From a virus (lineage: Duplodnaviria; Heunggongvirae; Uroviricota; Caudoviricetes): a DNA stretch of 64,000 nt. Below are positions 11,704 to 60,249 of this stretch, piece after piece. How positions within the stretch are numbered: position 1 is the first letter of the stretch; each line of letters opens with the position of its first letter. The notes under the pieces are model-generated. The model was not told the DNA's origin, did not search any database, and worked only from the letters and a program-made list of their open reading frames with translations. The translations under genes and the position numbers were made by a program. The stretch spans positions 64,001-128,000 of IMG/VR virus record IMGVR_UViG_3300008120_000059, one strand, 5' to 3'.

Positions 11704-12378
11704 TTATTTTTTCTTTCTAATTATCTCATCGATAATGCCATAACTCAACGCATCTTCTGATGATAACCACAAATCTCTCGACGCATCCTCCATGACAACT
11801 TCGGATGGTTTGTTACAATATTCACCCAATAGGTCAAATAGAATTTTATTTAATTTTTCCCATTCTTTCATATTAATCTTAGCATCCTGAATATTACCTT
11901 CAAAACCTCCTGAAGACTGATGTAACATTGTTCTACTGAATCTTAGTGAACATCTCTTACCTTTTGTACCCGCACCAAGTAAAACCGAACCCATAGATGC
12001 TGCCATTCCAGTGTTGATTGTACGAATATCCGAGTTGATATAATCCATTACATCCACCATTGATAATCCACTTTTTACAGAACCACCAGGACTATCAATG
12101 TGCATTGTGATATCAGTATTATCGATACTGTCTAAAAACATAAGTTGAGCTTGAACCACTGTCGACATGTTATCGTTTACAACACCCGCAACCCATATGA
12201 TTCTTTCCATCATCAATCGTGAGAATACATCCATCACGGTTACGTTCATTTGTCTCTCTTCCAATATGTATGGAGTTAAACTGTCTTCAACTTGTTTGTT
12301 GTAGTGATGTAAATTTAAACCGCTAATCCCTTTGTCCTTAGCGAATAGTCCGAAGTCTTTATATAGTTTACTGTTCAT
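11704..12378 (-). CDS. clpP: ATP-dependent Clp protease proteolytic subunit
   Basis: DVFSRLMMERII, SPGGSV, catalytic Ser in GMAASMG, His in MLHQ, Asp in RDLW. Confidence 0.95.
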   Translation of the reverse strand: MNSKLYKDFGLFAKDKGISGLNLHHYNKQVEDSLTPYILEERQMNVTVMDVFSRLMMERIIWVAGVVNDNMSTVVQAQLMFLDSIDNTDITMHIDSPGGSVKSGLSMVDVMDYINSDIRTINTGMAASMGSVLLGAGTKGKRCSLRFSRTMLHQSSGGFEGNIQDAKINMKEWEKLNKILFDLLGEYCNKPSEVVMEDASRDLWLSSEDALSYGIIDEIIRKKK

Positions 12379-21775: not shown

Positions 21776-24697
21776 TTAATTACATGTTCCAGTGCTTGTA
21801 AAAGTACCGTCACCATCATTCGTAACTTGAGGTGTTGGTGTTAAATAACCACAGTATGTCTCAGTTGTACCATTCCCAACAGTAATAAATTGAAGGGTAC
21901 CGGTACAGTCAGTATAACTAAATGTGGTATGACCTCCTGTTCCTGTCGTTCCTCCATCGAATTCCCATAGTATGTCACATGGAGTAGCCGAACTGGTTGG
22001 GGTGAGTGTTGGTGTTGGGGTATTTGTTGGTGTTACTGTATTGGTAGAAGTCACGGTCGGTGTTGGTGTTACAGTTTCAGTTGGTGTAACTGTATTAGTA
22101 GGTGTTACAGTATTCGTTGGGGTTACGGTCGGTGTTGGTGTTACAGTTTCAGTTGGTGTAACTGTATTAGTAGGTGTTATTGTTGGTGTTGATGTGGGCG
22201 AACCACCGGGTGATGTTGTAATTGTTGGAGTTACTGTATTAGTAGGTGTTACAGTATTCGTTGGGGTTACGGTCGGTGTTGGTGTTAAAGTATTGGTGGG
22301 TGTGGGTGTTACAAGTGGTATGATTGAATCGGAGCAAATACCCACCCTAGAACCTGAGGCACCACCATTACCTGATATGGTCATCGAGATAAATGGTGTT
22401 GAATTTGTTATTATGAATTTTCCACCACCATTGACAAAAAGTGGTGCGGTTGAGCCACCAATAATTGTGTTACCTGTTATTGTTACATAACAACTTAACG
22501 GTGAAGATATTGTGGGGGTACCTGTATTTGTTGTAAATGTGAAATCTTCATCACTAGTACCACCCATACCGGTTATAAAAACAACTAAATCATTTACTGG
22601 TGAACTAAAATTGTATCTATATGAGAAAGGTCCTGAATTTCCTAAAAAGTTATGATAGTCGGTCATTACAATAGTGTCACCAACACAGGATGACGTGTAT
22701 CCAGATGTATTTTCGGTAACACTACCACTATATGTTGATGTTATAGAAACACCGTTCACTGTCGAGGGGACATAAACGCTATCGTTACAAGTATACCCTG
22801 TTGATGGTGTACTACTAACAGTTGGTGTTGGGGTAAGTGTTGGTGTATTCGTAGGAGTCGCACTCTGAGTCGGTGTTACTGTTGGGGTGGGTGATGATAT
22901 CGGTGTCGACGAACTATCACAACAATCATCCAAATTAACTCTAAAAACTTGTTCACAACAACCTTCACAATCAATTCTAACATATATCTCCATTAATGTT
23001 GGGTCTATACCTGTAATATCACAAATATCTCCTGTGGACATACTTGTACATGAAGTTATACCTGTTATGTTAGTTGAAGTTAATCCGGTATAGACCGTAC
23101 AATTTGTATAATTAGAACCGGAATTAAATGAAATCTTAACGCCTTTTGGGGTGACCAAATCGTTTACACAACCTGAAGGTGTAACAGTAGGTGTAGGGGT
23201 TTTTGTTGGGGTGTTGGTGGGTGTTGGGGTTGGCGAACCACCAGGTGTTGATGTAACTGATGGTGTAACGCTAGGTGTTAGAGTCGGTGTTGATGTTACT
23301 GTAAGTGTAACTGTCGGTGTTAAAGACGGAGTTGTTGAAGGTGTTTCACTTGGTGTATTAGAGGGTGTTGCCGATGGTGAAGTAGTTGGTGTGGGCGAAC
23401 CTCCTGGTGATGAAGTAACTGTAGGTGTAACTGTATTTGTAGGGGTTGATGTATTGGTTGGAGTTACTGATGGTGAGGTAGTTGGTGTGGGTGTAGGTGA
23501 ATCGCCTGGTGATGAAGTAACTGTAGGTGTAACTGTATTTGTGGGAGTTGATGTATTGGTTGGTGTAGGTGAACCGCCAGGTGAAGTTGTGACTGTAGGT
23601 GTAACTGTATTTGTAGGAGTTACTGTTGGTGTGACAGATACAGTTGAAACCGGCGAACTTGTTGGTGTTACTGTTGGTGTTACTGTTGGTGTGACAGATA
23701 CAGTTGAAGCTGGTGAACTTGTTGGTTCAGGAGTGACTGTAGGTGTGACTGTCGGAGTACTAGTTAATGTAGGTGTTGGGACCGGTAGTGAGTCACAATT
23801 TTGGTAGTCCTCACAACCACCATTAGGATTCACAACTATATTAGTTGGGTCACTGAATGTAATTGTTTGATTGTCAAAACATACACATTGATAAACCGTA
23901 GCAAAAGGTGCGATGGTTCCGGAAGTTTGAAGCAAACCATAACAATCAGTATATGAATATGTAATTGTATTTCCATCTTCACTTATGATTTGTTTACACA
24001 CACAATCCGTACATATTGATGGTGTTGGTGTTGGGGTGGGGGATAGTGTTGGTGTTACAGTGTTAGTTGGTGTGGGTGTAACTGTTTTAGTAAGTGTTGG
24101 AGTTGGGGTTGGGGTTTCTGTGGGTGTTTCTGAAGGTGTTGGGGTTGGGGTTTCTGTGGGTGTTTCTGTTGGAGTTGGGGTTTCTGTGGGTGTTTCTGTT
24201 GGAGTTGGTGTCGGGGTTGGTGAAGGACATGATGGACACTCACCAGCTGTACAACTTGGTTGTGAAACCCACGTCCCAGTGTCGTCAACTGTTGCGGTTG
24301 AAGGGCCCGACGCAACCGCAATATAACAATCCGTATTGTCAGTGTATACACTACCTACTATATAATTTAATCCACTTTGTACTTCATAAATAGTGCCTCC
24401 TTGTTCACAACATTTTTCAAAAAAAGTGGTTTCTTGACATTGTGAACCACTATCATTTGCAGTACTATTCGATGCGGTTAATGGAGAATCGTTTTTAAAA
24501 TAATATAAACTAGGTAATCCATTTTGTATGTCGGTACAAATAGTATAACTACCATTTGAAAAACTTGTTGTTGTAAGTACACCATTACAGTTGTAATAAG
24601 CAACATACACCTTACCATTATTAACAGGGTTAGTGTTACCGGTGGCATTACCGGTATCCAATGAACTTATTGTGACGTTATATAATTGACAAGCCAT
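21776..24697 (-). CDS. modular Cys-rich / Thr-Pro stalk protein (putative fibre/adhesin)
   Basis: Several Cys-rich modules and one beta-sandwich-like domain separated by four TP-repeat tracts. Confidence 0.8.
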   Translation of the reverse strand: MACQLYNVTISSLDTGNATGNTNPVNNGKVYVAYYNCNGVLTTTSFSNGSYTICTDIQNGLPSLYYFKNDSPLTASNSTANDSGSQCQETTFFEKCCEQGGTIYEVQSGLNYIVGSVYTDNTDCYIAVASGPSTATVDDTGTWVSQPSCTAGECPSCPSPTPTPTPTETPTETPTPTETPTETPTPTPSETPTETPTPTPTLTKTVTPTPTNTVTPTLSPTPTPTPSICTDCVCKQIISEDGNTITYSYTDCYGLLQTSGTIAPFATVYQCVCFDNQTITFSDPTNIVVNPNGGCEDYQNCDSLPVPTPTLTSTPTVTPTVTPEPTSSPASTVSVTPTVTPTVTPTSSPVSTVSVTPTVTPTNTVTPTVTTSPGGSPTPTNTSTPTNTVTPTVTSSPGDSPTPTPTTSPSVTPTNTSTPTNTVTPTVTSSPGGSPTPTTSPSATPSNTPSETPSTTPSLTPTVTLTVTSTPTLTPSVTPSVTSTPGGSPTPTPTNTPTKTPTPTVTPSGCVNDLVTPKGVKISFNSGSNYTNCTVYTGLTSTNITGITSCTSMSTGDICDITGIDPTLMEIYVRIDCEGCCEQVFRVNLDDCCDSSSTPISSPTPTVTPTQSATPTNTPTLTPTPTVSSTPSTGYTCNDSVYVPSTVNGVSITSTYSGSVTENTSGYTSSCVGDTIVMTDYHNFLGNSGPFSYRYNFSSPVNDLVVFITGMGGTSDEDFTFTTNTGTPTISSPLSCYVTITGNTIIGGSTAPLFVNGGGKFIITNSTPFISMTISGNGGASGSRVGICSDSIIPLVTPTPTNTLTPTPTVTPTNTVTPTNTVTPTITTSPGGSPTSTPTITPTNTVTPTETVTPTPTVTPTNTVTPTNTVTPTETVTPTPTVTSTNTVTPTNTPTPTLTPTSSATPCDILWEFDGGTTGTGGHTTFSYTDCTGTLQFITVGNGTTETYCGYLTPTPQVTNDGDGTFTSTGTCN

Positions 24698-24700
24698 TTA

Positions 24701-25051
24701 TTACGTTATTTGAACAACATTAACATTAAATGCACATGGGTAGTAACAATCACTACATCTTAAATCAACTAATGCTAATTGATAACCACCTTGCAATTTT
24801 GGTACCGATGATGGTACAGGGTTTATGTGTCCGTCACAGTGTTCCACAAATACAAAAATTTGTGGTATGTTATCCAATAAACTTATATTAAACGTATATC
24901 CCGTTGATATTGGAATTAAAACTTCAACCCCATTGATATAATTTGCATCATCAATATTATGTGTTAACCCTGTGTAGATATAGTACCCGTTACAAGGTGT
25001 TTGTCCTGAAAAATTTGATATTGTTACTGAGTATGTTACTAATGACGGCAT
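24701..25051 (-). CDS. small beta-rich Cys-containing protein
   Basis: 116 aa, in operon with the stalk proteins. Confidence 0.7.
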   Translation of the reverse strand: MPSLVTYSVTISNFSGQTPCNGYYIYTGLTHNIDDANYINGVEVLIPISTGYTFNISLLDNIPQIFVFVEHCDGHINPVPSSVPKLQGGYQLALVDLRCSDCYYPCAFNVNVVQIT

Positions 25052-25057
25052 TATTTC

Positions 25058-25064
25058 ATAAATA
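25058..25064 (-). promoter_or_regulatory. TATTTAT box
   Basis: 6 nt upstream of ATG 25051. Confidence 0.5.
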
Positions 25065-25076
25065 TAAATTCAATGT

Positions 25077-25925
25077 TTAATTACAATAATCGGGATTTAA
25101 ATCACAATCTATAAATGCAATACCACAATAGTTAGGGTCTGTTATGGTTCCACTTAAACCGGTTTGTGCAACTAAGTATTCACCAGCACTTGGATTGAGT
25201 GTAATATTTCCACTATCCTGTGATGAACCAATGAATATTTGCCATTGTGGTGATGTGTATACCGCAATTACCACCCCTGAACTATTAACCTTATAAAAAG
25301 TAATTGGGATATTTGAAGTGGCGGTTGTTACACTACCTAAATTATCTTTTAGTGTCCAAGTAACTTCATATTGTATATTTTCATCTATCGTTTCAATACT
25401 GTACCATAAACAATATGATGAAGGGGTGTTTTGTGTTGGAGTAGGAGTTGGAGTCTTGGTAACTGTTGGGGTTGGTGATAAACCAGGAGTTTTTGTTGGA
25501 GTAGGGGTTGGTGTAATTGAAGCGTTCGGTGTCTTAGATGGTGTAGCGGTAACTGTTGGTGTTTTTGTAACTGTAGGTGTTGGGGTTGGGGTTCTTGTAA
25601 CTGTAGGTGTTGGAGTTGGACTTATTGGTGGGTCACACTGTACCTCAACACTAAAACATAGTGTATCATAACAAGGAAACGCTTTACTATCGTGAGTGTA
25701 AATATTTTTAATTATATAACGACCTGTAGTGTCGTCTGTCATTTTAACCCAATATTGAGTATTAAAACTTAAGTTTGTAATTGTAACAGCTGTAAGAGTT
25801 AAACCTGTTGCGTAAAGTGTAAATGTTGAATTGTTCGTTTCAGGATACGGGCTATCACCGGACTTGTATCTAATTGAGTACGTACCATCATTGATTATAT
25901 TGTATAAACGAACATTTAATCCCAT
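25077..25925 (-). CDS. two-domain protein with central Thr-Pro linker
   Basis: Beta-rich N- and C-domains joined by about 70 aa of TP repeats. Confidence 0.8.
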
Positions 25926-25951
25926 TTTTTAATTATTGATTTCTATATTTG

Positions 25952-25958
25952 ATAAATA
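25952..25958 (-). promoter_or_regulatory. TATTTAT box
   Basis: 26 nt upstream of ATG 25925. Confidence 0.4.
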
Positions 25959-25988
25959 TAAAAAATCCTATTTTATAGTAAAGTTATT

Positions 25989-28553: not shown

Positions 28554-28570
28554 TTATTACTATTCTTTCT

Positions 28571-28577
28571 ATAAATA
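28571..28577 (-). promoter_or_regulatory. TATTTAT box
   Basis: 17 nt upstream of ATG 28553. Confidence 0.45.
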
Positions 28578-28597
28578 CTTAAATCATTATTTTATCA

Positions 28598-31500
28598 TTA
28601 ACATGCTTCTCCACAAAATGTGTTACAATAATCACCACAACCAGTACCGTATGTATATTGCGAAGTATATATTGGTGGTACGAAGTTTCCTCTAAACAAT
28701 ATAAACACATTTGTCACTCTCATAAGACAAACGCTATAATTACCAGGGGCGTTATAACCTTGTGTTGTGAATGTACCATCACAACATTGGTATGCAAAGT
28801 ATACTTGATTATCATCTGAGGCTGTTAAATCATTAATATCAACAAAAAAGTCTGTACACAAACAATCACCACAAGCACCATCATACGTTATCTCCCCACC
28901 ATAAGGACCTAATACACTTGGAATACTACATGAACATATCTCAATTGTACCACTTGCTGGGTACACATTTGGGTCAAGTATTTCTGTGGGTGTTCCTCCA
29001 CCGCAACAAGTGGTATAGTTAACTATATTACCAGGTCCTAATCCTGTAATAATATATGACTCACAAACACATGGTGGAGTTGGGGTTGGGGTCGGAGTTG
29101 GAGTTGGGGTTGGGGTTGATGACGGATTTGAAACCGGAGATGGTGTTGGAGTGTTTGTTGGAGTGTTTGTTGGAGTTACAGTCTTGGTTGGTGTATTTGT
29201 AGGAGTATTGGTTGGTGTTAAAGTTGGAGTAACTGTCCTTGTTGGAGTATTTGTAGGGGTAAAGGTTGGAGTTACAGTCTTGGTTGGAGTATTTGTAGGG
29301 GTAAAGGTTGGAGTTACAGTCTTGGTTGGTGTATTTGTAGGGGTAAAGGTTGGAGTTACAGTCTTGGTTGGTGTATTTGTAGGAGTATTGGTTGGTGTTA
29401 AAGTTGGAGTAACTGTCCTTGTTGGTGTATTTGTCGGTGTTTTTGTTGGGGTTAAAGTTGGTGTAACTGTTGGTGTAACTGTTGGGGTTGGTGAAGGACA
29501 AGGGTGATAAGTTTCACATTCAGTACATGTATTGTATGTACCATACGCAGTGATTGCGGAACCAGGTACTCCTGGTCCGACTGAGTTTGTAACAAAATAA
29601 CAACAACCATTAATTGATATATAACGGTTTACTAAAAGATTTGGGTTAAATCCATTTTGACAACCAAATTGAATTGTATATTGTCCTGTTGTACCACAAC
29701 ATCCACATCTTTGTAAATCGAAAATCCAAGTGGCGCATGGGTTAGCTCCAATACATGTTTCACATGTATCAACACTAAATGATGATGGTGGATAATACCC
29801 GTCAACCCCACTAAAGTTTGGTGGTGAGTAGGTTTGACTATAACCTTCAACAAAATAACAACATCCATTTATAACAATAGTTTGACCTTGTGAAATACCG
29901 CTTTGAACATAGGTCAAATTAGTTGTTATACTTAAATAAGAAATAGTATTACCTAAAATACCACCATCACAACATGGTAATAAATAAACATAACCAACCT
30001 GTAAGGATGGTGATGGTGTTACTGTGCTTGTTGGTGTTAATGTAGGAGTTAAAGTTGGTGTAACTGTTTTTGTTGGTGTATTGGTAGGGGTTACGGATGG
30101 TGTTCTCGTAGGAGTAACACTATTGGTTGGGGTGTTAGTCGGGGTTAAAGTTGGTGTAACTGTTCTTGTTGGTGTATTGGTAGGGGTTACCGTAGGGCTA
30201 ACAGTGGCGGCTGGAGTTCTTGTTGGAGTAACAGTATTTGTTGGGGTATTGGTTGGTGTGAGAGTTGGTGTAACTGTTCTTGTTGGTGTATTGGTAGGGG
30301 TTACCGTATTCGTAGGTGTAACAGTTCTGGTTGGTGTTGGTGTCGGGGTTGGTGATGGACAAAAATTTAGAGTTTCTCCTAAACATTGTGCACAACTTGT
30401 CTGAACAGTAGTGTAAATCGTACCTCCAGGTCCTACCTGTTGCACATACGTTGCACATAACTGAATGTCTTGTAAATAAAATACCGTACCTAACAATGTA
30501 CCTAATGGTACTTGACCATAATAAACATTGGTGTCACCAGGACAACATGATTCAAATCTAGCAGCAACATACTGAGGACTAGCCGTTGGGGTTACTGTTT
30601 TGGTTGGTGTCAATGTTGGTGTAACAGTATTTGTTGGAGTGTTAGTTGGTGTTACGGTTGGACTAACTGTGGCAGCCGGTGTTCTTGTTGGTGTAACAGT
30701 ATTTGTTGGGGTATTTGTTGGAGTTACCGTAGGACTAACAGTGGCTGCTGGAGTTCTTGTTGGGGTATTGGTTGGGGTAACAGTATTTGTGGGGGTTACT
30801 GTGTTCGTTGGGGTATTGGTAGGTGTATTTGTTGGTGTTAATGTTGGACTAACAGTAGCCGCTGGTGTTCTTGTTGGTGTAACAGTATTTGTTGGGGTAT
30901 TTGTTGGAGTTACCGTATTTGTTGGAGTATTAGTTGGGGTGTTAGTTGGTGTTACAGTGTTGGTTGGTGTATTAGTTGGAGTTAAAGTTGGTGTAACTGT
31001 TCTTGTTGGTGTATTGGTAGGTGTAACTGTATTCGTAGGGGTGACTGTATTAGTTGGAGTGTTGGTTGGAGTATTAGTTGGAGTTAAGGTTGGACTAACA
31101 GTGGCAGCTGGTGTTCTTGTCGGGGTTACGGTATTAGTAGGGGTATTGGTTGGAGTTACCGTATTTGTTGGAGTATTAGTTGGGGTGTTGGTTGGAGTAA
31201 CAGTGTTGGTTGGGGTGTTAGTAGGGGTGTTGGTCGGTGTAACTGTATTTGTTGGAGTAACAGTATTAGTAGGTGTGTTTGTTGGTGTGTTAGTCGGTGT
31301 TAATGTTGGACTAACAGTAGCCGCTGGTGTTCTCGTAGGAGTTACAGTATTGGTAGGAGTATTGGTAGGAGTAACGGTGTTTGTTGGGGTGTTTGTAGGA
31401 GTATTGGTTGGTGTTACAGTATTGGTTGGAGTATTGGTTGGTGTAAAAGTTGGTGTAACAGTTTTTGTTGGTGTATTAGTAGGAGTATTGGTCGGTGTGA

Positions 31501-34500
31501 CAGTGTTGGTTGGTGTTACTGTATTTGTTGGAGTATTGGTTGGGGTATTGGTTGGTGTAAGGGTAGGACTAACAGTGGCTGCCGGAGTTCTTGTTGGAGT
31601 AACAGTATTGGTTGGGGTATTGGTTGGTGTAACAGTATTAGTCGGCGTATTGGTTGGAGTATTTGTTGGTGTGACTGTATTCGTTGGAGTGTTAGTAGGT
31701 GTAAAAGTTGGTGTGACGGTTCTTGTTGGTGTATTGGTTGGTGTAACGGTATTGGTTGGGGTGTTTGTGGGTGTAAGGGTAGGACTAACAGTGGCGGCCG
31801 GAGTTCTTGTTGGAGTCACTGTATTGGTCGGTGTGTTGGTGGGTGTGACTGTGTTAGTAGGTGTATTTGTAGGTGTATTAGTTGGTGTGACTGTATTTGT
31901 TGGAGTGTTTGTTGGGGTGTTTGTGGGTGTAACAGTATTAGTAGGAGTATTGGTTGGTGTTACAGTTTTGGTTGGAGTGTTAGTAGGTGTAACAGTATTA
32001 GTAGGTGTATTGGTAGGTGTATTGGTTGGTGTAACAGTATTCGTAGGAGTATTTGTTGGAGTATTTGTTGGACTAACAGTAGCTGCTGGTGTTCTTGTTT
32101 AGCTGCTGGTGTTCTTGTTGGGGTTACGGTATTAGTTGGGGTTACAGTGTTAGTCGGAGTGTTAGTTGGTGTATTCGTTGGTGTAACGGTATTTGTTGGG
32201 GTGTTAGTTGGTGTATTTGTTGGTGTTACTGTATTGGTAGGAGTATTTGTAGGACTCAATGTAGGTGTAACTGTATTGGTCGGTGTTAAAGTTGGTGTAA
32301 CTGTCTTTGTTGGTGTATTAGTAGGTGTCTGAGTTGGTGTAACTGTATTAGTCGGAGTATTAGTAGGCGTAACAGTGTTTGTTGGAGTATTGGTTGGGGT
32401 ATTTGTAGGAGTTACCGTATTGGTTGGGGTGTTTGTAGGAGTATTGGTAGGGGTGACAGTCTTGGTTGGAGTATTTGTGGGGGTAACAGTATTTGTTGGG
32501 GTAACCGTATTAGTTGGTGTGTTGGTTGGAGTATTTGTTGGGGTTAGAGTTGGTGTAACAGTTTTTGTTGGTGTATTAGTTGGAGTAACGGTATTTGTTG
32601 GGGTATTGGTTGGGGTATTTGTAGGAGTTACCGTATTAGTCGGGGTATTAGTAGGCGTAACAGTGTTTGTTGGAGTATTGGTTGGGGTGTTTGTAGGAGT
32701 TAAGGTAGGTGTAACAGTCTTGGTTGGGGTGTTGGTTGGTGTAACTGTATTAGTAGGTGTGTTAGTTGGTGTAACTGTATTAGTAGGTGTATTTGTTGGA
32801 GTATTTGTTGGGGTAACAGTATTCGTAGGAGTATTGGTCGGTGTTAATGTAGGAGTAACAGTTCTTGTTGGAGTATTTGTTGGGGTAACAGTATTCGTAG
32901 GAGTATTAGTAGGTGTTAATGTAGGTGTAACAGTCTTGGTCGGAGTGTTTGTAGGAGTATTTGTTGGTGTAACAGTGTTTGTTGGTGTTACCGTGTTTGT
33001 AGGAGTATTGGTAGGAGTGTTCGTTGGAGTATTGGTTGGTGTTAATGTAGGTGTAACAGTATTAGTAGGTGTTAATGTAGGTGTAACAGTCTTGGTTGGG
33101 GTGTTTGTAGGAGTATTTGTTGGTGTAACGGTGTTCGTAGGGGTAACTGTAGGACTCAATGTAGGGGTTACAGTATTGGTCGGAGTATTAGTAGGTGTTA
33201 ATGTAGGTGTAACAGTCTTGGTTGGTGTATTGGTTGGGGTAACCGTGTTAGTTGGTGTGTTGGTGGGTGTTACTGTATTAGTAGGAGTAACTGTAGGACT
33301 CAATGTAGGAGTTACAGTCTTGGTTGGTGTATTAGTGGGTGTGTTTGTTGGTGTAACAGTATTGGTTGGGGTAACCGTGTTAGTTGGTGTGTTGGTTGGA
33401 GTATTTGTTGGGGTATTGGTTGGGGTGACTGTCTTAGTCGGTGTATTAGTTGGGGTTACTGTATTTGTTGGTGTAACCGTATTTGTTGGTGTATTTGTGG
33501 GTGTATTGGTTGGAGTTAAAGTTGGTGTTACAGTTTTTGTTGGTGTGTTGGTCGGTGTAACTGTATTTGTTGGTGTATTTGTGGGTGTATTGGTCGGTGT
33601 AACTGTATTTGTTGGAGTATTTGTTGGGGTGTTAGTGGGTGTAACAGTATTAGTAGGAGTATTTGTGGGCGTATTGGTCGGTGTAACTGTATTTGTCGGA
33701 GTATTGGTTGGGGTATTTGTTGGTGTAACGGTGTTCGTAGGGGTAACTGTAGGACTCAATGTAGGGGTTACAGTGTTTGTAGGAGTGTTTGTGGGAGTGT
33801 TGGTTGGGGTAACTGTATTAGTAGGAGTAACTGTAGGGGTGACAGTTTTAGTAGGTGTATTAGTTGGAGTATTGGTAGGGGTTACAGTATTAGTAGGGGT
33901 ATTTGTAGGAGTTAATGTAGGAGTTACAGTCTTGGTTGGGGTATTTGTTGGTGTAACGGTGTTCGTAGGGGTAACTGTAGGACTCAATGTGGGAGTCACC
34001 GTATTGGTCGGAGTATTGGTGGGGGTTACTGTATTAGTAGGAGTATTAGTAGGAGTATTGGTTGGGGTTACCGTGTTGGTCGGAGTTAAAGTTGGTGTAA
34101 CAGTTTTTGTTGGTGTATTGGTTGGAGTTACAGTGTTCGTAGGGGTATTTGTTGGTGTTAGAGTTGGTGTAACAGTTTTTGTTGGTGTATTAGTAGGAGT
34201 TACGGTGTTAGTTGGAGTGTTGGTAGGTGTGTTAGTTGGTGTTACAGTGTTGGTTGGTGTATTAGTAGGTGTCTGAGTTGGTGTAACTGTCTTGGTTGGG
34301 GTATTAGTTGGCGTTACAGTATTGGTTGGGGTTACCGTATTTGTAGGAGTTACGGTATTGGTTGGAGTAACAGTATTAGTCGGCGTTACTGTGTTAGTTG
34401 GGGTGTTAGTGGGGGTAACAGTATTAGTAGGAGTAACGGAATTCGTGGGAGTGTTTGTAGGAGTGTTTGTTGGTGTTAATGTAGGTGTTACGGTTTTTGT

Positions 34501-37500
34501 TGGTGTATTGGTTGGGGTTACTGTATTTGTAGGAGTATTTGTAGGAGTTAAGGTAGGTGTAACAGTATTGGTTGGGGTATTGGTAGGTGTGTTGGTCGGG
34601 GTGACTGTGTTAGTTGGTGTAACTGTATTAGTTGGTGTATTCGTAGGGGTTTGAGTTGGTGTAACAGTATTGGTTGGGGTATTTGTTGGAGTTAAAGTTG
34701 GTGTGACAGTTTTTGTTGGTGTATTGGTAGGAGTTACGGTATTTGTAGGAGTATTAGTCGGTGTCTGAGTTGGTGTTACGGTGTTTGTTGGAGTATTGGT
34801 TGGAGTTAATGTAGGTGTTACAGTCTTGGTTGGTGTATTAGTTGGTGTTACAGTATTAGTAGGTGTAACAGTATTAGTAGGTGTAACAGTGTTTGTAGGT
34901 GTAACGGTATTGGTGGGAGTCACCGTATTAGTTGGTGTGTTAGTTGGGGTTACGGTGTTGGTTGGAGTAACGGTATTTGTTGGGGTGTTTGTAGGAGTGT
35001 TTGTTGGTGTTAATGTAGGTGTTACGGTTTTTGTTGGTGTATTGGTTGGTGTAACAGTATTTGTTGGTGTGTTGGTGGGTGTGTTGGTGGGTGTTACAGT
35101 ATTAGTTGGGGTATTAGTAGGACTCAATGTTGGGGTAACAGTATTCGTTGGTGTTACAGTATTGGTTGGAGTGTTTGTTGGGGTATTTGTTGGGGTTACG
35201 GTATTAGTAGGGGTATTGGTTGGAGTTAATGTAGGAGTAACAGTCTTGGTTGGTGTATTAGTTGGCGTAACAGTGTTTGTTGGGGTGTTAGTTGGGGTAT
35301 TTGTAGGGGTTACCGTATTGGTCGGAGTGTTGGTTGGTGTTAATGTAGGAGTAACAGTCTTGGTTGGAGTGTTTGTTGGGGTAACAGTATTGGTTGGAGT
35401 CACTGTATTAGTTGGTGTGTTGGTCGGTGTATTTGTTGGGGTTAAAGTTGGTGTGACAGTTTTTGTTGGTGTATTGGTTGGGGTTACTGTGTTAGTAGGA
35501 GTGTTTGTAGGTGTATTAGTAGGGGTATTAGTATTAGTCGGGGTATTGGTCGGTGTAACTGTATTCGTTGGAGTAACGGTAGGAGTTAATGTAGGAGTAA
35601 CAGTCTTGGTTGGTGTATTAGTAGGTGTGTTAGTAGGGGTTACCGTATTGGTTGGGGTGTTAGTCGGGGTAACTGTGTTAGTTGGTGTGTTAGTTGGTGT
35701 GTTGGTCGGAGTTACCGTATTTGTTGGAGTATTTGTAGGGGTTAAGGTAGGCGTAACAGTTCTTGTTGGAGTATTGGTCGGTGTAACTGTATTCGTTGGA
35801 GTTACAGTGTTAGTGGGGGTTACGGTATTGGTCGGCGTTACAGTGTTAGTCGGTGTTACCGTATTAGTTGGAGTATTTGTTGGCGTAACAGTGTTTGTTG
35901 GAGTTACAGTGTTTGTGGGGGTATTGGTTGGAGTATTGGTGGGAGTCTGAGTTGGGGTGACTGTCTTAGTTGGGGTATTGGTCGGGGTAACTGTGTTGGT
36001 TGGAGTAACGGTATTTGTTGGGGTATTGGTCGGGGTATTGGTTGGAGTTAAAGTTGGCGTAACAGTGTTTGTTGGTGTATTGGTAGGTGTTACAGTATTA
36101 GTTGGGGTATTGGTTGGAGTTAAAGTTGGTGTAACAGTTTTTGTTGGTGTATTAGTTGGCGTTACAGTATTAGTTGGTGTGTTAGTTGGTGTGTTTGTTG
36201 GGGTTACCGTATTGGTCGGAGTTACCGTAGGACTCAATGTAGGAGTTACAGTATTAGTTGGTGTGTTGGTTGGTGTGACTGTATTCGTTGGAGTGTTAGT
36301 AGGTGTCTGAGTTGGGGTAACAGTATTTGTTGGAGTATTGGTAGGAGTATTGGTAGGGGTTACAGTATTGGTAGGAGTATTGGTAGGGGTTACAGTATTG
36401 GTAGGAGTATTCGTTGGGGTTAGAGTTGGTGTAACAGTTTTGGTAGGAGTATTAGTAGGGGTTACAGTATTTGTAGGAGTTACCGTAGGACTCAATGTGG
36501 GAGTCACCGTATTAGTTGGTGTATTGGTTGGGGTTACGGTGTTGGTTGGAGTGTTTGTAGGTGTATTAGTTGGAGTAACAGTATTTGTAGGTGTATTAGT
36601 CGGGGTATTGGTTGGTGTTACGGTGTTGGTTGGGGTTAAAGTTGGTGTGACAGTTTTTGTTGGTGTATTGGTTGGCGTAACAGTGTTTGTCGGAGTATTA
36701 GTTGGGGTGTTGGTTGGTGTATTAGTTGGAGTTACAGTGTTGGTTGGAGTGTTAGTTGGTGTTACGGTATTGGTTGGGGTTACTGTGTTTGTAGGAGTAT
36801 TGGTCGGTGTATTCGTTGGGGTTAGAGTTGGTGTAACAGTTTTGGTAGGAGTATTAGTAGGAGTTATAGTATTCGTTGGTGTGTTGGTCGGTGTAACAGT
36901 ATTAGTTGGGGTGTTGGTTGGGGTGTTGGTTGGAGTAACAGTATTAGTTGGAGTATTAGTTGGGGTGTTGGTTGGAGTAACAGTGTTTGTTGGGGTTACC
37001 GTAGGGCTCAATGTGGGAGTTACAGTTTTAGTAGGGGTGTTTGTTGGAGTTACGGTGTTGGTTGGGGTATTGGTTGGTGTGTTAGTTGGTGTAACTGTAT
37101 TAGTGGGAGTCACTGTAGGGCTCAATGTTGGAGTTACAGTGTTGGTTGGGGTGTTAGTTGGTGTATTGGTTGGTGTAACTGTATTCGTTGGAGTGTTTGT
37201 AGGAGTGTTGGTTGGGGTTACAGTATTAGTTGGTGTGTTGGTTGGAGTTAATGTAGGTGTAACGGTTCTTGTGGGGGTGTTGGTAGGGGTTACGGTATTA
37301 GTTGGAGTGTTTGTTGGGGTATTTGTTGGGGTTACGGTATTAGTTGGAGTGTTTGTTGGGGTATTTGTTGGGGTTACGGTATTAGTAGGGGTATTGGTTG
37401 GGGTATTTGTTGGGGTTACGGTATTAGTAGGGGTATTGGTTGGAGTTAATGTAGGTGTAACGGTTCTTGTGGGGGTGCTGGTAGGGGTTACGGTGTTAGT

Positions 37501-40500
37501 TGGAGTGTTGGTAGGTGTGTTAGTTGGCGTAACGGTGTTAGTTGGAGTCACAGTCGGACTCAATGTAGGTGTTACTGTATTTGTTGGGGTGTTGGTAGGG
37601 GTATTTGTAGGTGTTACGGTGTTGGTAGGTGTAACTGTTGGACTCAATGTAGGAGTCACAGTATTTGTTGGTGTATTTGTAGGTGTGTTAGTTGGGGTAA
37701 CGGTATTAGTTGGAGTGTTGGTTGGTGTATTTGTTGGTGTTACTGTGTTAGTAGGGGTATTTGTGGGAGTATTTGTAGGTGTTACGGTGTTGGTAGGTGT
37801 AACTGTTGGACTCAATGTGGGAGTCACAGTTTTAGTAGGAGTATTTGTAGGTGTTACGGTGTTGGTAGGTGTGTTTGTTGGGGTATTGGTTGGAGTTACC
37901 GTATTCGTCGGAGTATTAGTAGGGGTGTTAGTTGGAGTTACAGTGTTTGTTGGTGTGTTTGTAGGGGTATTGGTAGGTGTTACTGTGTTAGTAGGAGTAT
38001 TTGTAGGAGTATTGGTTGGTGTTACGGTATTTGTAGGAGTTACAGTTGGTGTTAATGTAGGAGTCACCGTGTTTGTTGGGGTATTGGTGGGAGTATTTGT
38101 AGGGGTTACCGTATTTGTCGGTGTATTGGTTGGTGTTAAAGTAGGTGTAACCGTTCTTGTTGGAGTGTTAGTTGGTGTAACCGTATTTGTAGGAGTATTA
38201 GTAGGGGTGTTGGTAGGGGTTACAGTATTCGTAGGGGTATTGGTTGGTGTATTCGTGGGTGTGACAGTATTAGTTGGTGTTACGGTTGGACTCAGTGTAG
38301 GGGTTACTGTATTGGTTGGAGTGTTAGTTGGGGTATTTGTAGGTGTAACTGTATTTGTTGGGGTGTTTGTAGGTGTATTAGTTGGTGTAACTGTATTAGT
38401 TGGTGTATTCGTAGGGGTTTGAGTTGGTGTAACAGTATTTGTAGGAGTCACAGTCGGACTCAATGTGGGAGTCACGGTCTTAGTCGGTGTGTTAGTAGGG
38501 GTAACTGTGTTCGTAGGAGTTACCGTAGGACTCAATGTAGGGGTGACAGTGTTGGTTGGAGTATTGGTTGGTGTGTTGGTTGGTGTTACGGTGTTTGTAG
38601 GAGTTACTGTATTAGTAGGAGTGTTCGTAGGGGTATTGGTAGGGGTTACTGTGTTAGTTGGAGTGTTAGTAGGTGTATTGGTAGGAGTAACTGTATTGGT
38701 TGGTGTATTTGTGGGTGTAACAGTGTTAGTTGGTGTGTTAGTTGGTGTGTTGGTAGGAGTTACGGTGTTAGTTGGAGTATTTGTAGGTGTCTGAGTTGGT
38801 GTAACTGTATTCGTAGGGGTTACAGTCGGACTCAGTGTAGGTGTTACTGTGTTAGTCGGGGTAACTGTAGGTGTATTTGTTGGAGTTACAGTGTTGGTTG
38901 GGGTGTTGGTTGGAGTTACGGTGTTCGTTGGAGTATTGGTTGGTGTATTAGTTGGGGTTACTGTATTAGTTGGAGTATTGGTTGGGGTATTGGTTGGAGT
39001 TACAGTCTTGGTTGGTGTGTTGGTTGGTGTTACGGTGTTTGTTGGAGTATTGGTTGGAGTGTTTGTGGGGGTGTTGGTTGGTGTTACGGTGTTTGTTGGG
39101 GTGACTGTATTGGTTGGAGTGTTTGTTGGGGTGTTGGTGGGAGTATTTGTAGGGGTTACCGTATTTGTCGGTGTATTGGTTGGTGTTAAAGTAGGTGTAA
39201 CCGTTCTTGTTGGAGTTACAGTCGGACTCAATGTTGGAGTTACTGTATTGGTTGGTGTTAGTGTCGGGCTTAATGTTGGTGTAACAGTACTAGTTGGGGT
39301 ATTGGTTGGGGTGTTGGTTGGAGTTACCGTATTGGTTGGTGTATTCGTCGGTGTATTTGTAGGTGTAACAGTATTCGTAGGTGTTACAGTTGGAGTATTG
39401 GTTGGGGTTACTGTGTTAGTTGGAGTATTGGTGGGGGTATTGGTTGGAGTAACAGTATTTGTTGGTGTCACAGTCGGACTCAATGTTGGTGTAACAGTTT
39501 TTGTTGGGGTATTTGTCGGTGTCTGAGTTGGTGTTACGGTATTGGTTGGCGTATTGGTAGGAGTATTGGTTGGCGTATTTGTTGGAGTTACGGTATTAGT
39601 TGGTGTGACTGTATTGGTTGGGGTGTTAGTCGGCGTGTTCGTAGGGGTGTTGGTTGGTGTTACCGTATTTGTTGGTGTATTAGTAGGTGTGTTAGTAGGT
39701 GTTACTGTATTTGTAGGCGTGTTCGTGGGAGTCTGAGTTGGTGTTACAGTGTTAGTAGGAGTGTTAGTTGGCGTGTTAGTGGGTGTAACAGTATTAGTAG
39801 GAGTCACCGTTGGACTCAATGTAGGTGTAACAGTATTGGTTGGTGTGTTGGTCGGAGTGTTGGTAGGAGTTACAGTATTAGTAGGAGTCACCGTTGGACT
39901 CAATGTAGGTGTAACTGTATTTGTTGGGGTATTTGTTGGGGTATTGGTAGGAGTTACTGTATTAGTCGGAGTGTTGGTCGGGGTGTTGGTTGGAGTAACA
40001 GTGTTGGTGGGAGTATTGGTTGGAGTGTTAGTTGGTGTATTTGTTGGGGTTACGGTGTTGGTTGGAGATACCGTATTTGTAGGAGTATTGGTTGGAGTGT
40101 TAGTTGGGGTTAGTGTTGGGGTTACGGTGTTTGTTGGGGTATTGGTAGGTGTATTGGTTGGTGTAACGGTATTTGTAGGAGTAACAGTGTTGGTTGGAGT
40201 ATTGGTAGGACTTAATGTTGGCGTATTAGTTGGGGTTACGGTGCTGGTTGGAGTCACTGTTGGACTCAATGTAGGTGTAACTGTATTTGTTGGTGTGTTG
40301 GTAGGAGTGTTTGTAGGAGTCACAGTATTAGTAGGAGTCACAGTTGGACTTAATGTGGGAGTTACTGTATTAGTTGGAGTGTTGGTAGGTGTGTTAGTTG
40401 GGGTTACTGTATTTGTCGGGGTATTGGTTGGGGTATTTGTTGGTGTAACGGTGTTGGTCGGAGTGTTTGTGGGAGTATTTGTAGGAGTTACTGTGTTCGT

Positions 40501-43500
40501 AGGAGTTACTGTAGGACTCAATGTTGGTGTTACTGTATTTGTTGGGGTGTTAGTAGGAGTGTTTGTTGGAGTCACCGTGTTTGTTGGGGTATTGGTGGGA
40601 GTATTTGTTGGTGTAACAGTATTTGTTGGGGTGTTAGTTGGGGTGTTGGTAGGAGTTACCGTATTGGTTGGTGTGTTAGTTGGGGTGTTGGTAGGAGTTA
40701 CCGTATTGGTTGGTGTGTTAGTAGGAGTGTTTGTTGGTGTAACAGTATTGGTTGGTGTGTTAGTAGGAGTGTTTGTTGGTGTAACAGTATTGGTAGGAGT
40801 TACAGTTGGGGTGTTGGTTGGAGTTACAGTATTAGTAGGCGTATTGGTAGGAGTATTAGTTGGAGTTACTGTATTTGTAGAAGTATTGGTAGGAGTATTG
40901 GTAGGGGTGACAGTATTGGTGGGCGTATTGGTAGGAGTATTGGTTGGGGTGACTGTATTTGTTGGAGTATTTGTTGGGGTGTTAGTTGGAGTTACTGTAT
41001 TTGTAGGAGTATTGGTAGGAGTATTGGTAGGGGTGACAGTATTGGTGGGGGTGTTTGTAGGAGTATTGGTAGGGGTGACAGTATTGGTTGGAGTATTAGT
41101 TGGGGTGACTGTATTTGTTGGAGTATTTGTTGGGGTGTTGGTAGGGGTGTTGGTAGGAGTTACAGTATTGGTTGGAGTAACTGTATTGGTTGGAGTGTTT
41201 GTCGGGGTATTTGTAGGTGTCAGTGTCGGTGTTACGGTATTTGTTGGAGTATTAGTAGGAGTGTTAGTTGGTGTAACCGTATTTGTTGGTGTATTTGTGG
41301 GTGTATTGGTAGGAGTAACTGTATTGGTAGCCGTATTGGTAGGAGTGTTGGTTGGTGTATTAGTTGGTGTGACTGTATTGGTCGGAGTTACCGTCGGTGT
41401 ATTTGTTGGGGTTACGGTATTGGTAGGGGTTACTGTTGGTGTATTCGTAGGCGTGTTTGTTGGGGTTACGGTATTTGTTGGAGTATTAGTGGGGGTATTC
41501 GTAGGTGTATTGGTTGGTGTTACGGTGTTAGTTGGGGTATTTGTAGGGGTTTGAGTTGGTGTAACGGTATTGGTTGGAGTCACTGTTGGACTCAATGTTG
41601 GCGTTACCGTATTGGTAGGAGTATTAGTTGGCGTATTGGTAGGAGTAACTGTGTTGGTTGGGGTGTTGGTAGGAGTGTTAGTTGGTGTTACAGTATTAGT
41701 TGGTGTGTTAGTTGGTGTGTTTGTTGGTGTTACGGTGTTCGTAGGGGTGTTAGTAGGTGTCAGTGTTGGGGATACCGTATTGGTAGGAGTGTTAGTTGGT
41801 GTATTTGTAGGGGTTACCGTATTGGTAGGAGTATTAGTTGGTGTATTTGTAGGAGTAGCAGTATTAGTAGGGGTATTTGTTGGAGTATTGGTCGGTGTTA
41901 CAGTGTTTGTTGGAGTGTTGGTTGGTGTTACAGTGTTTGTTGGGGTGTTTGTCGGAGTGTTGGTTGGGGTATTCGTTGGTGTTACAGTATTTGTAGGGGT
42001 TACGGTGTTGGTTGGAGTATTGGTGGGGCTTAATGTTGGGGTATTTGTAGGGGTTACGGTGTTGGTTGGGGTCGCTGTTGGAGTCAATGTAGGTGTAACT
42101 GTATTGGTTGGGGTATTGGTAGGAGTATTGGTTGGGGTAACAGTATTGGTAGGAGTAACTGTTGGACTCAATGTAGGAGTAACTGTATTGGTAGGAGTGT
42201 TTGTTGGTGTATTGGTTGGTGTTACAGTATTAGTTGGAGTATTTGTTGGAGTTAAAGTTGGTGTAACAGTTTTTGTTGGTGTATTAGTTGGGGTGTTAGT
42301 AGGAGTTACTGTATTGGTTGGTGTGTTTGTGGGAGTATTGGTTAATGTAACGGATGGTGTTACAGTGTTGGTTGGTGTTACCGTTGGAGTATTGGTGGGT
42401 GTTGGGGTGCTCGTTGGAGTTGGTGAGGGTAACATTGTATAATCAATGTCACAAGAAGGTGCTGGTGTTGGTGAAACCGTCACAGTTACACTTGGTGTAT
42501 TTGTTGGAGTTACAGTATTGGTTGGAGTTACAGTATTTGTCGGGGTGTTTGTGGGGGTAACTGTATTGGTTGGAGTCACTGTTGGACTCAATGTTGGTGT
42601 TACAGTGTTAGTAGGAGTGTTGGTCGGCGTGTTAGTTGGAGTATTGGTTGGTGTTACGGTGTTAGTTGGTGTTACCGTAGGACTCAATGTAGGAGTCACA
42701 GTATTGGTAGGTGTATTGGTTGGAGTATTGGTTGGTGTTACGGTGTTAGTTGGTGTTACCGTAGGACTCAATGTAGGAGTCACAGTATTCGTTGGTGTGT
42801 TTGTAGGTGTATTAGTCGGAGTTACGGTGTTGGTTGGAGTTACGGTATTTGTGGGAGTGTTTGTAGGAGTGTTGGTAGGAGTGTTTGTTGGAGTTACGGT
42901 GTTGGTTGGGGTATTGGTTGGGGTATTGGTTGGTGTAACGGTATTTGTAGGAGTATTTGTAGGTGTCTGAGTTGGAGTTACTGTATTCGTCGGTGTGTTT
43001 GTTGGGGTGTTGGTAGGAGTTACGGTATTGGTAGGACTTAATGTTGGAGTGTTAGTTGGAGTATTTGTTGGAGTTACTGTGTTGGTTGGAGTATTCGTAG
43101 GTGTAACCGTATTTGTTGGTGTATTAGTTGGGGTGTTTGTAGGTGTATTAGTTGGTGTCACAGTTTCTGTTGGAGTCACTGTAACAGTATTGGTTGGTGT
43201 GACTGTATTGGTAGGGGTTACGGTGTTGGTTGGTGTAAGTGTTGGTGTTTCTGTGGGAGTATTTGTTGGTGTGTTGGTGGGGGTATTTGTTGGTGTTTCG
43301 GTTGGTGTATTTGTAGGTGTATTAGTTGGAGCTACCGTATTTGTTGGAGTTACAGTTGGAGTGTTAGTTGGGGTAACCGTTGGTGTAACAGTATTGGTAG
43401 GAGTATTGGTTGGGGTTTGAGTTGGTGTAACGGTTGCAGTATTTGTTGGTGTTAGGGTAGGTGTTTCAGTTTGTGTTACAGTGGGTGTATTGGTTGGAGT

Positions 43501-44748
43501 TACAGTATTGGTTGGAGTTACAGTTGAGGTATTAGTCGGAGTGTTAGTTGGTGTTATGGTGTTGGTTGGGGTATTGGTAGGTGTTTCGGTAGGGGTAACG
43601 GTTGGACTCAGTGTTGGTGTTACTGTGTTAGTCGGAGTATTAGTTGGGGTGTTGGTTGGTGTTTCGGTAGGGGTAACGGTTAGGGTTACGGTGTTGGTTG
43701 GAGTATTGGTTGGTGTTTCGGTTGGTGTTTCGGTTGGTGTATTAGTTGGGGTAACAGTATTGGTTGGAGTTACAGTTGGGGTAACAGTTGGGGTAACAGT
43801 TGGAGTTACGGTGTTGGTTGGGGTATTGGTTGGTGTTTCGGTTGGTGTTTCGGTTGGTGTATTAGTTGGGGTAACAGTATTTGTTGGGGTGTTAGTGGGT
43901 GTTTCAGTCGGTGTATTAGTTGGGGTATTGGTTGGTGTTTCGGTAGGGGTTACTGTATGAGTTGGTGTATTGGTAGGTGTTTCGGTAGGGGTTACCGTAT
44001 TTGTTGGAGTTACAGTTGGAGTTTCGGTAGGGGTAACTGTATTTGTTGGGGTGTTGGTAGGTGTTTCAGTTGGTGTATTGGTTGGGGTTACCGTATTTGT
44101 TGGGGTTACAGTTGGAGTTTCGGTCGGAGTAACAGTTGGTGTCTCGGTTGGTGTAACTGTATTCGTAGGAGTTACAGTAGGTGTGTTGGCTGGTGATTCG
44201 GTTGGAGTTACTGTGTTAGTTGGGGTAACTGTAGGAGTTTCAGTTGGGGTAACCGTTGGGGTATTTGTTGGGGTATTGGTTGGAGTTACTGTGTTAGTTG
44301 GAGTAACTGTAGGAGTTTCAGTTGGGGTAACTGTAGGCTCGTTTGTTGGAGTATTAGTCGGAGTTACGGTATTCGTAGGAGTATTTGTTGGAGTGATAGT
44401 ATTGGTTGGGGTAACAGTAGGTGTTTTTGTAACCGTAGGTGTAACAGTAGGGGTTTTGGTAACTGTTGGGGTTGGGGTATTTGAAGTAAAGGTTGTTGGT
44501 GTTGGTGTTAATGATGGTGTAAGTGTTGGTGAAGGTGTAGGTGAAGGTGTAGGGCAAGGAATCTCAGCCACACAAGTTTTATCAAGTGACGGAAAATAAA
44601 CTGAGTAAGTACCTAAGTAGTAGTTTGTGTCGTAATAATATGGCATCACGACAGTACCTAAATTCAAGGTACCGCCAGTACAAGGATAAAATGTGATAAC
44701 ACCAATTTCACCATCAAAATTACCTGTGTTTATTTTTATTAATGCCAT
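28598..44748 (-). CDS. giant mucin-like Thr/Pro/Asn repeat protein (5,376 aa after removing a 20-nt duplication) with C-terminal Cys-rich modules
   Basis: Track ORFs 31960..44748 and 28598..31819 become one frame when one copy of the 20-mer at 32080-32119 is removed: (16151-20)/3 = 5377 codons. Confidence 0.8.
30578..44553 (-). repeat. ~14-kb degenerate coding repeat ([26 protein letters not shown] units)
   Basis: Continuous T/P/N/V tract of about 4,650 codons with diversified synonymous positions and some recent exact 42-nt tandem copies (about 37287-37370). Confidence 0.97.
32080..32119. repeat. exact 20-nt tandem duplication causing a frameshift
   Basis: tagctgctggtgttcttgtt at 32080-32099 and 32100-32119. 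Confidence 0.95.
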
Positions 44749-59796: not shown

Positions 59797-60249
59797 TTAT
59801 ATGTTAATAATTATAAAATCGGACGAAACAAAAGGTTCGTTATTTATGTCATAGTCAATTCGAACTTTTGCGGTATATGGTTTGGTTGAATAATCAGAAA
59901 CTCTAAACAATCTTGAGTCCTCATCTTCTTGTGGGCTCATAGATTCTTCAGGGTCTTGGTCAGCGGGTGTAACTCTAATTGATTTTATTTCTAAATTAGG
60001 TATGTATAATTTCACCGCAGTTCTTATTTCATCTTCTATCTGACCCCATGTTACAGCGTCATTTGGTTCAAAAATAAATTCATATAATCTAGTCCCAAAA
60101 TCAGGTAAATAATATCTTGAACCCTTTCTTGTTAATAACAAGTGAATCAAGTTTGCACGAATCTCTCTCTCAGGGGTTTCGGTCATAACCAAAAAATCAC
60201 CCTTAGGACTAATTCTGAATGGAAAATCTATACCATATGTAATCGCCAT
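59797..60249 (-). CDS. baseplate gp25-like protein
   Basis: GIDFPF, IRANLIHLLLTRKGSRYYLPDFGTRLYEFIFEP. Confidence 0.9.
   Translation of the reverse strand: MAITYGIDFPFRISPKGDFLVMTETPEREIRANLIHLLLTRKGSRYYLPDFGTRLYEFIFEPNDAVTWGQIEDEIRTAVKLYIPNLEIKSIRVTPADQDPEESMSPQEDEDSRLFRVSDYSTKPYTAKVRIDYDINNEPFVSSDFIIINI

Follow-up and report, generated by a model that had tools for sequence, protein, structure and literature searches.

We analysed a 64,000-nucleotide (nt) window, bases 64001-128000 of the 162,907-bp IMG/VR contig IMGVR_UViG_3300008120_000059, which derives from a tailed virus of the Caudoviricetes and has an estimated completeness of 53% (CheckV). Every gene of interest in the window lies on the minus strand, including five consecutive genes at 21776-44748, four of which encode proteins with threonine/proline (TP) linkers, as a first-pass annotation of the sequence had described (Table 1). 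The linkers are 20-140 amino acids (aa) long in three of these genes and far longer in the fourth, a giant gene. Between them sit small, cysteine-rich modules of recurring families, which are exchanged among related phages within a fixed genomic slot, and we propose that the proteins may serve as host-attachment fibres of the virus particle. The contig has a GC content of ~31%, which stands at 41-45% across window positions 22-44 kb, with very strong GC skew there.

Table 1. Features of the locus and its flanks, in window coordinates.
Feature	Position	Strand	Remarks
Giant gene	28598-44748	-	single frame of 5,376 aa after deletion of one 20-nt copy
N-terminal 65-aa domain of giant protein, putative virion anchor	44554..44748	-	conserved in 13 viral loci
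Thr/Pro/Asn/Val stalk, reading frame 1	32101..44553	-	repeat units
CDID island, lone Cys in stalk, residues 766-769 (SCDIDY)	42442..42453	-	recurs in L062 stalk
Perfect 20-nt tandem duplication, AACAAGAACACCAGCAGCTA twice	32080..32119	-	shifts the frame of the giant gene
C-terminal part of giant gene (frame 2): further stalk and tip modules	28598..32098	-	order anchor-stalk-A-AA-tip as in L009 and L062
Type A unit, giant module 1	30359..30574	-	type A profile
Double type A unit, giant module 2, 16 Cys	29498..30004	-	type A profile
Distal tip: two type-B-like units and Cys-rich tail, 16 Cys	28601..29071	-	five viral contigs only, the window's included
854-aa gene	25989-28553	-	TP linkers
Double A in 854-aa gene	28116-28553	-	type A
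B51 in 854-aa gene	27909-28061	-	B51
Module m3 of 854-aa gene	27396-27629	-	linker-delimited
Beta-propeller in 854-aa gene, 311 aa	26325-27257	-	repeat propeller related to N-terminus of P0017
C-terminal module Ct8 of 854-aa gene	25992-26225	-	also ends 282-aa ortholog in L010
282-aa gene	25077-25925	-	conserved 97-aa N-terminal domain, TP linker, variable C-terminal module
116-aa gene, conserved	24701-25051	-	no TP linker
973-aa gene	21776-24697	-	TP linkers
B-long and A in 973-aa gene	24227-24697	-	type profiles
B-type module m2 of 973-aa gene	23792-24013	-	type B
Module m3 of 973-aa gene	22910-23170	-	also ends P0012
Modules m4/m5 of 973-aa gene	22325-22798	-	linker-delimited
B-type module m6 of 973-aa gene	21779-21979	-	type B
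716-aa conserved downstream neighbour	19588..21738	-	closes variable slot
1,414-aa upstream neighbour, function unassigned	44839..49083	-	last gene of baseplate-side block
gp6-like baseplate wedge gene	57963-59795	-	upstream of locus
gp25-like gene	59797-60249	-	upstream of locus

As assembled, the giant gene is split into two open reading frames (ORFs), 31960-44748 (4,262 aa) and 28598-31819. A perfect 20-nt tandem duplication lies exactly where the first ORF runs into its frameshifted tail, the second frame opens at the same joint, and deletion of one copy restores a stop-free frame. Because uninterrupted orthologs in two other viral contigs, L009 (2,940 aa) and L062 (2,737 aa), share the order anchor-stalk-A-(AA)-tip, we conclude that the two ORFs were once one gene. 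A second giant-gene ortholog, in contig L060 (IMGVR_UViG_3300008267_000295), loses its frame shortly ahead of the tip modules, where 49 nt are perfectly duplicated in tandem (8527-8624), and perfect 104-nt repeats lie 114 nt apart near this duplication. The break in L060 could reflect either recurrent slippage or recurrent misassembly, and an assembly error is plausible there because long perfect repeats are so close by. A dozen plus-strand ORFs of 100-700 aa at 32375-44599, which gene callers may report, are not genes, since they merely reflect the lack of stops opposite ACN and CCN codons.

The fused giant protein is 45% Thr, 20% Pro, 14% Asn and 9% Val, and TP linkers make up 4,935 of its 5,376 residues (92%), with uninterrupted stalks of 700 and 3,952 residues. 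Its commonest 14-aa stalk peptide is present in 148 copies encoded by 145 DNA versions. Third-codon-position identity among copies of identical 14-aa peptides is 0.39, equal to the expectation from codon usage, and the stalk DNA repeats are just 65-80% alike. Because the peptides have been kept while synonymous sites were scrambled, selection on the protein, and neither recent expansion of the DNA nor faulty assembly, accounts for the stalk array. Stalk composition varies between relatives, from TPTN in the window to TPSV in L009. Among seven closely related anchor-bearing contigs, five (L023, L024, L026, L027 and L028) stop within the TP array, 105-1,058 residues past the anchor domain; the giant gene is a systematic breakpoint of short-read assemblies, and giant stalk genes are therefore probably under-counted in databases. 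The lone-Cys island of the window's stalk has counterparts in the stalk of L062 and, as similar CDFDVDV islands, in the relative G001 (L057 8700-13958), so that lone-Cys islands interrupt the otherwise Cys-free TP stalks of three phages. Such an island could be a cross-linking or processing site.

The anchor domain recurs across viral loci, and a complex prediction with three copies of it scored 0.01, a value that speaks neither for nor against oligomerisation. The distal tip has no homolog among proteins of 641-5,000 aa in the protein collection, and a single-protein scan of viral contigs likewise gave no match; its relatives were found only by an alignment-based scan.

When the proteins are cut at their TP linkers, the window yields 19 modules, and 178 were collected overall. 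The most clearly defined family, type A, spans ~65 aa (alignment columns) with four conserved cysteines in the pattern C…G…C…CxxC; in an alignment of 27 units from the window and its relatives, C8, C36 and C62 are invariant and C59 and G27 nearly so. A profile scan of the whole 163-kb contig returned exactly the six units counted in the first-pass annotation, all in the locus: two in the 854-aa gene, one in the 973-aa gene and three in the C-terminal part of the giant gene. Searched against 1.84 billion representative proteins, the profile matched 79 clusters at E<=1e-3, nine of them at E<=1e-10. About half of the type-A-bearing proteins found elsewhere have TP linkers and almost none has a Pfam domain; collagen repeats, SprB, VWA, fn3 (1/77) and a beta-propeller each appear in single cases, and one linker-less type A protein lies beside lysis genes in a 109-kb phage contig. 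The profile found nothing in four metagenome-assembled genomes (MAGs) that each include one of the four best-matching contigs bearing ClpP, a protein also encoded in the window. Type A is a virus-associated family.

Type B had been proposed as one family defined by a Y..C.G motif. Every sequence string quoted in its support is present, and the motif is real and concentrated in the locus: within the coding frames of the window, [YFWV]x[YF]xxCxG occurs six times in the locus and once elsewhere, as a minus-strand match in a candidate frame. Instead of one family, type B comprises two linked subfamilies, whose direct profile link is weak (5%). B51, of ~51 aa and with the consensus CxSGxT..WYYTDCCG…C…C, is found in 31 of the 178 collected modules and proteins of related phages often join it to SprB repeats. 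B-long, of ~90 aa, has the consensus ..C....D...A.GNT....N..V.V.Y.DC.G. By pairwise BLAST, the window's modules resemble one another weakly. An all-versus-all profile-profile comparison of 20 unit profiles nonetheless sets the types apart, the top 24 pairs all falling within one type; probabilities are 95, 92, 86, 77, 67 and 64% for A-A pairs and 70, 49, 48 and 42% for B-B pairs, with cross-type and control pairs below 5%.

These families have no convincing counterpart in the resources that we searched. Pfam and PHROGs scans of whole proteins and single modules gave no fibre, spike or adaptor match, and the sole PHROGs match, phrog_15511 (function unassigned), fell on the TP linkers themselves. 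In Pfam scans of the window's modules we found no Ig-like, fn3 or BACON domain, and scans of these modules and the two flanking proteins found no SprB repeat (PF13573), which is confined to B51- or anchor-bearing proteins of the relatives. The double-A domain and the 1,414-aa neighbour had no tblastn match in 50,697 GenBank phage records, and the modules matched no described family among PDB sequences and had only weak, generic matches in fold libraries. The suggestion that the modules are undescribed stands for Pfam, PHROGs, PDB sequences and GenBank phages, and probably for fold libraries; a literature search, which left most subscription journals uncovered, also returned no description of such phage proteins.

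The locus occupies a fixed slot in a set of related genomes. The whole locus recurs in the same order in the viral contigs L009 (171 kb) and L010 (43 kb), and the giant gene is present in L060 and L062 as well. In the window, in L009/L010 and in the 248-kb relative G001:C1, gp25 and gp6 are followed by large baseplate-side proteins, then by the variable TP-module genes, and these by a 715-770-aa protein and replication genes. The downstream part of the slot is seen in L011, L012 and the contig that encodes P0012, with TP-module genes, a 714-743-aa protein, a ~200-aa gene and primase. In these three contigs and in G001 the slot is filled by other TP-linked proteins, and the 716-aa protein that closes it in the window is 52-59% identical to its G001 homolog.

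Within this slot, modules are mixed and matched, and the joints lie in the TP linkers as predicted: orthologous loci exchange, insert or delete distal modules at these points. A table of orthologs shows that the N-terminal domain is kept in every locus gene and that variation is distal. The 854-aa family always begins AA-B51-m3 and ends either in Ct5 (six members) or in Ct8 (three members), and its beta-propeller is inserted in the window's gene only, being absent from eight orthologs and N-terminal in P0017. The 282-aa family carries three different C-terminal modules in three phages, and that of the L010 ortholog is the Ct8 module seen in the 854-aa gene of the window (E 2e-11). P0012, which belongs to the 854-aa family, ends in module m3 of the 973-aa gene, and the domain of the 116-aa gene forms the N-terminus of a 372-aa TP-linked protein in G001. 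The giant anchor domain heads other cargo as well, namely SprB repeats in L011 and globular proteins of 463-539 aa in L030/L032; the L032 gene has distal tail genes around it and the tape-measure gene upstream. A further observation concerns the 1,414-aa upstream neighbour, whose homolog in G001 (L057 240-8654) has 2,804 aa and 49 Cys. This 2,804-aa protein shares a C-terminal module with the 282-aa homolog of the same phage (14655-15890), and shuffling therefore reaches the upstream neighbour.

Upstream of the locus, 13-15 kb away and on the same strand, lie the gp25-like and gp6-like genes, and ribonucleotide reductase genes are also found on this baseplate side. The interval from gp6 to the locus holds six unannotatable genes of 277-1,414 aa. 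Past the 716-aa protein the order is RuvC, primase, exonuclease and SbcCD. The locus had been placed among tail and baseplate genes; the baseplate genes upstream bear this out, but with replication genes downstream, the locus lies where the baseplate block ends and so is not strictly among tail genes. In a protein atlas the 716-aa neighbour was matched as a 'viral hypothetical protein' only and the 1,414-aa neighbour had no match at all. Two genes that immediately precede the tail-fibre genes of Flavobacterium phage immuto are weakly similar to the 716-aa protein. Immuto, the nearest cultured phage found, has tail-fibre and tail-spike genes 10-18 kb after gp6, the same relative place as the locus. 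The locus shares with known tail-fibre genes its position in the tail or baseplate module.

In our reading the virus is a large T4-like phage, probably with a Bacteroidota host. The GenBank phages nearest to it by gp6 are distant, at 26-29% identity (a 484-kb uncultured phage, Flavobacterium phage immuto and a Microcystis phage). The closest bacterial relatives of its ClpP are from Bacteroidota (44-52% identity), and the closest ClpP matches overall (61-80%) come for the most part from contigs assigned to Flavobacteriaceae, Saprospirales or Bacteroidetes MAGs, two of these contigs being ~250 kb long. These two, filed under Flavobacteriaceae and Bacteroidetes MAGs, are L036 (CBFHJJ010000001.1, 248 kb) and L038 (CAIWBA010000291.1, 254 kb). 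L036 holds ClpP, ribonucleotide reductase, gp25, gp6 and a homolog of the 716-aa protein in phage order, and is therefore a related jumbo phage binned into a bacterial genome.

Structure prediction suggests that type A and B-long units are compact, generic small beta domains. The AlphaFold model of type A is a small five-stranded domain with a C-terminal helix that bears the CxxC (predicted local distance difference test score, pLDDT, ~80), and B-long is modelled as a beta-sandwich (pLDDT 82-97); B51 has a pLDDT below 50. Structural matches to the type A model are weak (Foldseek best E 0.3 against the PDB; VIA-align best Z 4.0 among 48,161 chains). The B-long model reaches a best VIA Z of 4.5 (root-mean-square deviation 3.6, 75 aligned), with C2, Fn3 and PA-IIL lectin-type sandwiches as the matches, and has no match in the viral structure library; across the two models the best Foldseek E values are 0.3 against the PDB and 0.0095 against the viral library. 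A riboflavin synthase lead, in which the double-A domain matched Lum_binding in Pfam at E 0.014, was dropped as chance (Foldseek E 0.3, template-modelling score 0.15).

The cysteines of these modules tend to occur in pairs. Even counts are found in 164 of 223 linker-delimited modules with at least four Cys, far above chance, and the commonest count is six. Moreover, in the 27-unit alignment an extra Cys at site 1 of type A is always paired with an extra Cys at or after the CxxC. Even counts and paired extra cysteines therefore point to disulfides within modules, and of the two forms of stabilisation first suggested, disulfides or metals, these data favour disulfides. Neither an Erv1-type sulfhydryl oxidase nor a prolyl hydroxylase was found in the 53%-complete contig. 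Read by eye, the five proteins have no visible N-terminal signal peptide or lipoprotein signal and no C-terminal anchor motif, so that synthesis and assembly in the cytoplasm, followed by release on lysis, are probable. At least three GT2 genes score above the Pfam cut-off in the contig (at G000:C1 16262, 56047 and 60938), 25-70 kb from the locus. In L011, two GT9 glycosyltransferases, a methyltransferase and a sugar epimerase (491-4805) lie head-to-head with a 1,435-aa TP-module gene. Because of these GT2 genes and the GT9 genes beside a TP gene, stalk glycosylation is possible.

The architecture of the locus invites comparison with several known systems. Mosaic receptor-binding proteins, such as T4-type and T5/lambdoid side fibres, have a conserved N-terminal virion-attachment part and exchangeable distal parts (review PMC9603124). 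The locus resembles them in its conserved N-termini, variable distal modules, baseplate/distal-tail neighbours and exchange between related phages. Unlike them, it shows no sequence match and no convincing fold match, its shafts are Thr/Pro low-complexity chains (one of ~4,700 residues) in place of a trimeric beta-helix, coiled coil or collagen, and its predicted binding units are tiny, Cys-rich and arranged in series. In mucins, Fap1/GspB-type serine-rich-repeat adhesins and cellulase or cellulosomal scaffoldin linkers, stalks rich in Ser, Thr and Pro hold binding domains off a surface. Like the mucins and serine-rich-repeat adhesins, the locus combines a long Thr/Pro-rich repeat stalk with folded domains, as beads on a string, in a genome that also encodes glycosyltransferases; unlike these proteins and cellulosomes, it is phage-encoded and has no visible signal peptide, cell-wall anchor, cohesin or dockerin. 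By the sequence and fold tests run, the locus belongs to none of these families, whether mosaic fibres, mucins, serine-rich-repeat adhesins or cellulosomal linkers. O-glycosylated virion proteins were reportedly described by Freeman et al. in 2023 in mycobacteriophages Che8, Corndog and Myrna. These phages offer a precedent for phage glycosyltransferases that act on Ser/Thr-rich parts of structural proteins; their targets are reportedly short C-terminal tails of capsid and tail-tube proteins, whereas the locus has kilo-residue stalks and no adjacent glycosyltransferase. SprB is a gliding-motility surface adhesin of Flavobacterium johnsoniae. In related phage contigs, B51 and the giant anchor domain are fused to SprB repeats, which the window's own modules lack.

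A conserved N-terminus, variable distal modules and baseplate or tail neighbours together form the signature of phage receptor-binding proteins. Because the locus joins conserved N-termini and variable distal modules beside baseplate/tail genes, we read its proteins as having an N-terminal docking domain, a TP spacer and Cys-rich binding units. We propose that they are virion-attached, disulfide-braced host-adhesion fibres on extended tethers, a reading to which we assign a probability of roughly 0.55. Their place in the virion is suggested by gene position, by the combination of conserved N-terminus and variable cargo, and by the lack of signal peptides. The locus would then be a hypervariable cassette of host-attachment proteins, in which the conserved N-terminal domain docks each protein on the virion at or near the baseplate and the Thr/Pro spacer extends from it, bearing one to several small beta-rich domains as binding units for host-surface structures. 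Disulfides in these modules would form once the particle leaves the reducing cytoplasm. In the giant protein, four or five domains would sit at the end of a spacer of ~4,700 residues, with an estimated contour length of ~1.5 micrometres if an extended, polyproline-II-like chain of ~0.31 nm per residue is assumed, and the protein may serve as a tether of long reach, catching cells ahead of tail engagement. New specificities could arise by recombination in linker DNA that shifts whole modules between genes and phages.

Several points weigh against this reading. The proteins are known from their genes alone, and known families of fibres, spikes or adaptors have no match among the modules or among the neighbours that separate gp6 from the locus. 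Classical fibres form rigid trimers, and to our knowledge a Thr/Pro chain thousands of residues long is without precedent as a phage fibre in the literature searched. Replication genes adjoin the locus downstream, so that its position is not proof by itself. The giant gene is frameshifted in the present assembly, and its tip may consequently not be made as part of the giant protein. As to the disulfides, the modules counted for cysteine parity are mutually related, which inflates the p-value, and the four-Cys units may bind metal (zinc).

We also put forward, as speculation that we consider unlikely, a bolder form of the tether model. In it, this clade would build micrometre-long, monomeric, mucin-like tethers composed of a 65-residue baseplate anchor, a stalk of 2,000-4,700 residues possibly glycosylated by phage transferases, and a tip cluster of disulfide-knotted domains of new fold, enlarging the capture radius more than tenfold. 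The out-of-frame stalk duplications, 20 nt here and 49 nt in L060, would then be a slippage switch by which display of the tip goes off and on across the population.

Among the alternatives to virion-attached adhesion fibres, the one that fares best, doubtful as we hold it, is that the proteins decorate the capsid or neck in the manner of Hoc or whiskers and adhere weakly to mucus, particles or polysaccharide instead of recognising a specific receptor. Small, swappable domains on flexible tethers would suit decoration proteins equally, and the Pfam and PHROGs scans found no baseplate-adaptor homology. The genomic context argues otherwise: the locus follows gp25, gp6 and large baseplate-side genes and not head genes, the anchor domain of L032 comes after a tape-measure gene, and the modules gave no Ig-like domain in Pfam scans.

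Ranked just after decoration, and likewise improbable, is the idea that the proteins are not part of the virion at all and are released at lysis or act on the infected-cell surface, as a sticky matrix, as decoys, or as mimics or partners of gliding adhesins. The fusion of B51 to SprB repeats in related contigs fits this idea, as do the replication genes that border the slot and the fact that virion membership is deduced from genes. Secretion would call for signals that are not visible, neither a signal peptide nor a secretion-type C-terminal domain; the pairing of a conserved N-terminal domain with variable cargo is the pattern of structural attachment proteins, and baseplate genes accompany the slot in the window, in L009/L010 and in G001.

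That the giant gene is a decaying pseudogene or a low-complexity assembly artefact, with module similarity due to shared Cys/Thr/Pro composition, is very improbable and for the locus as a whole largely refuted: the duplications that break the frame here and in L060, the five of seven related contigs that end inside the array and the weak BLAST similarity between window modules are outweighed by the intact L009 and L062 orthologs of the same architecture, the scrambled synonymous sites behind conserved peptides, the clean separation of module types from controls in profile-profile comparison and the reach of the type A profile across protein clusters.

No part of phage biology is harder to predict than host recognition, and in most uncultured aquatic phages a receptor-binding protein cannot be recognised. 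If the proposed adhesion-fibre function is correct, a clade of large, probably Bacteroidota-infecting phages would use serial mini-domains on flexible, mucin-like tethers in place of rigid trimeric fibres, with a natural plug-and-play exchange of binding modules at linker joints. At least three new families of compact Cys-rich domains (type A, B51 and B-long) would be available for expression as candidate binders, and a single-polypeptide tether of ~1.5 micrometres on a virus particle would alter estimates of phage-cell encounter rates in water. Should the proteins prove not to be in the particle, the cassette would still be a large, fast-evolving, 23-kb investment of the genome. Elsewhere in the window lie genes for a ClpP protease (11704-12378), a sigma-70-type factor (9606-10418), an amidase (7483-8088) and a Dam-type methylase (1353-2243).

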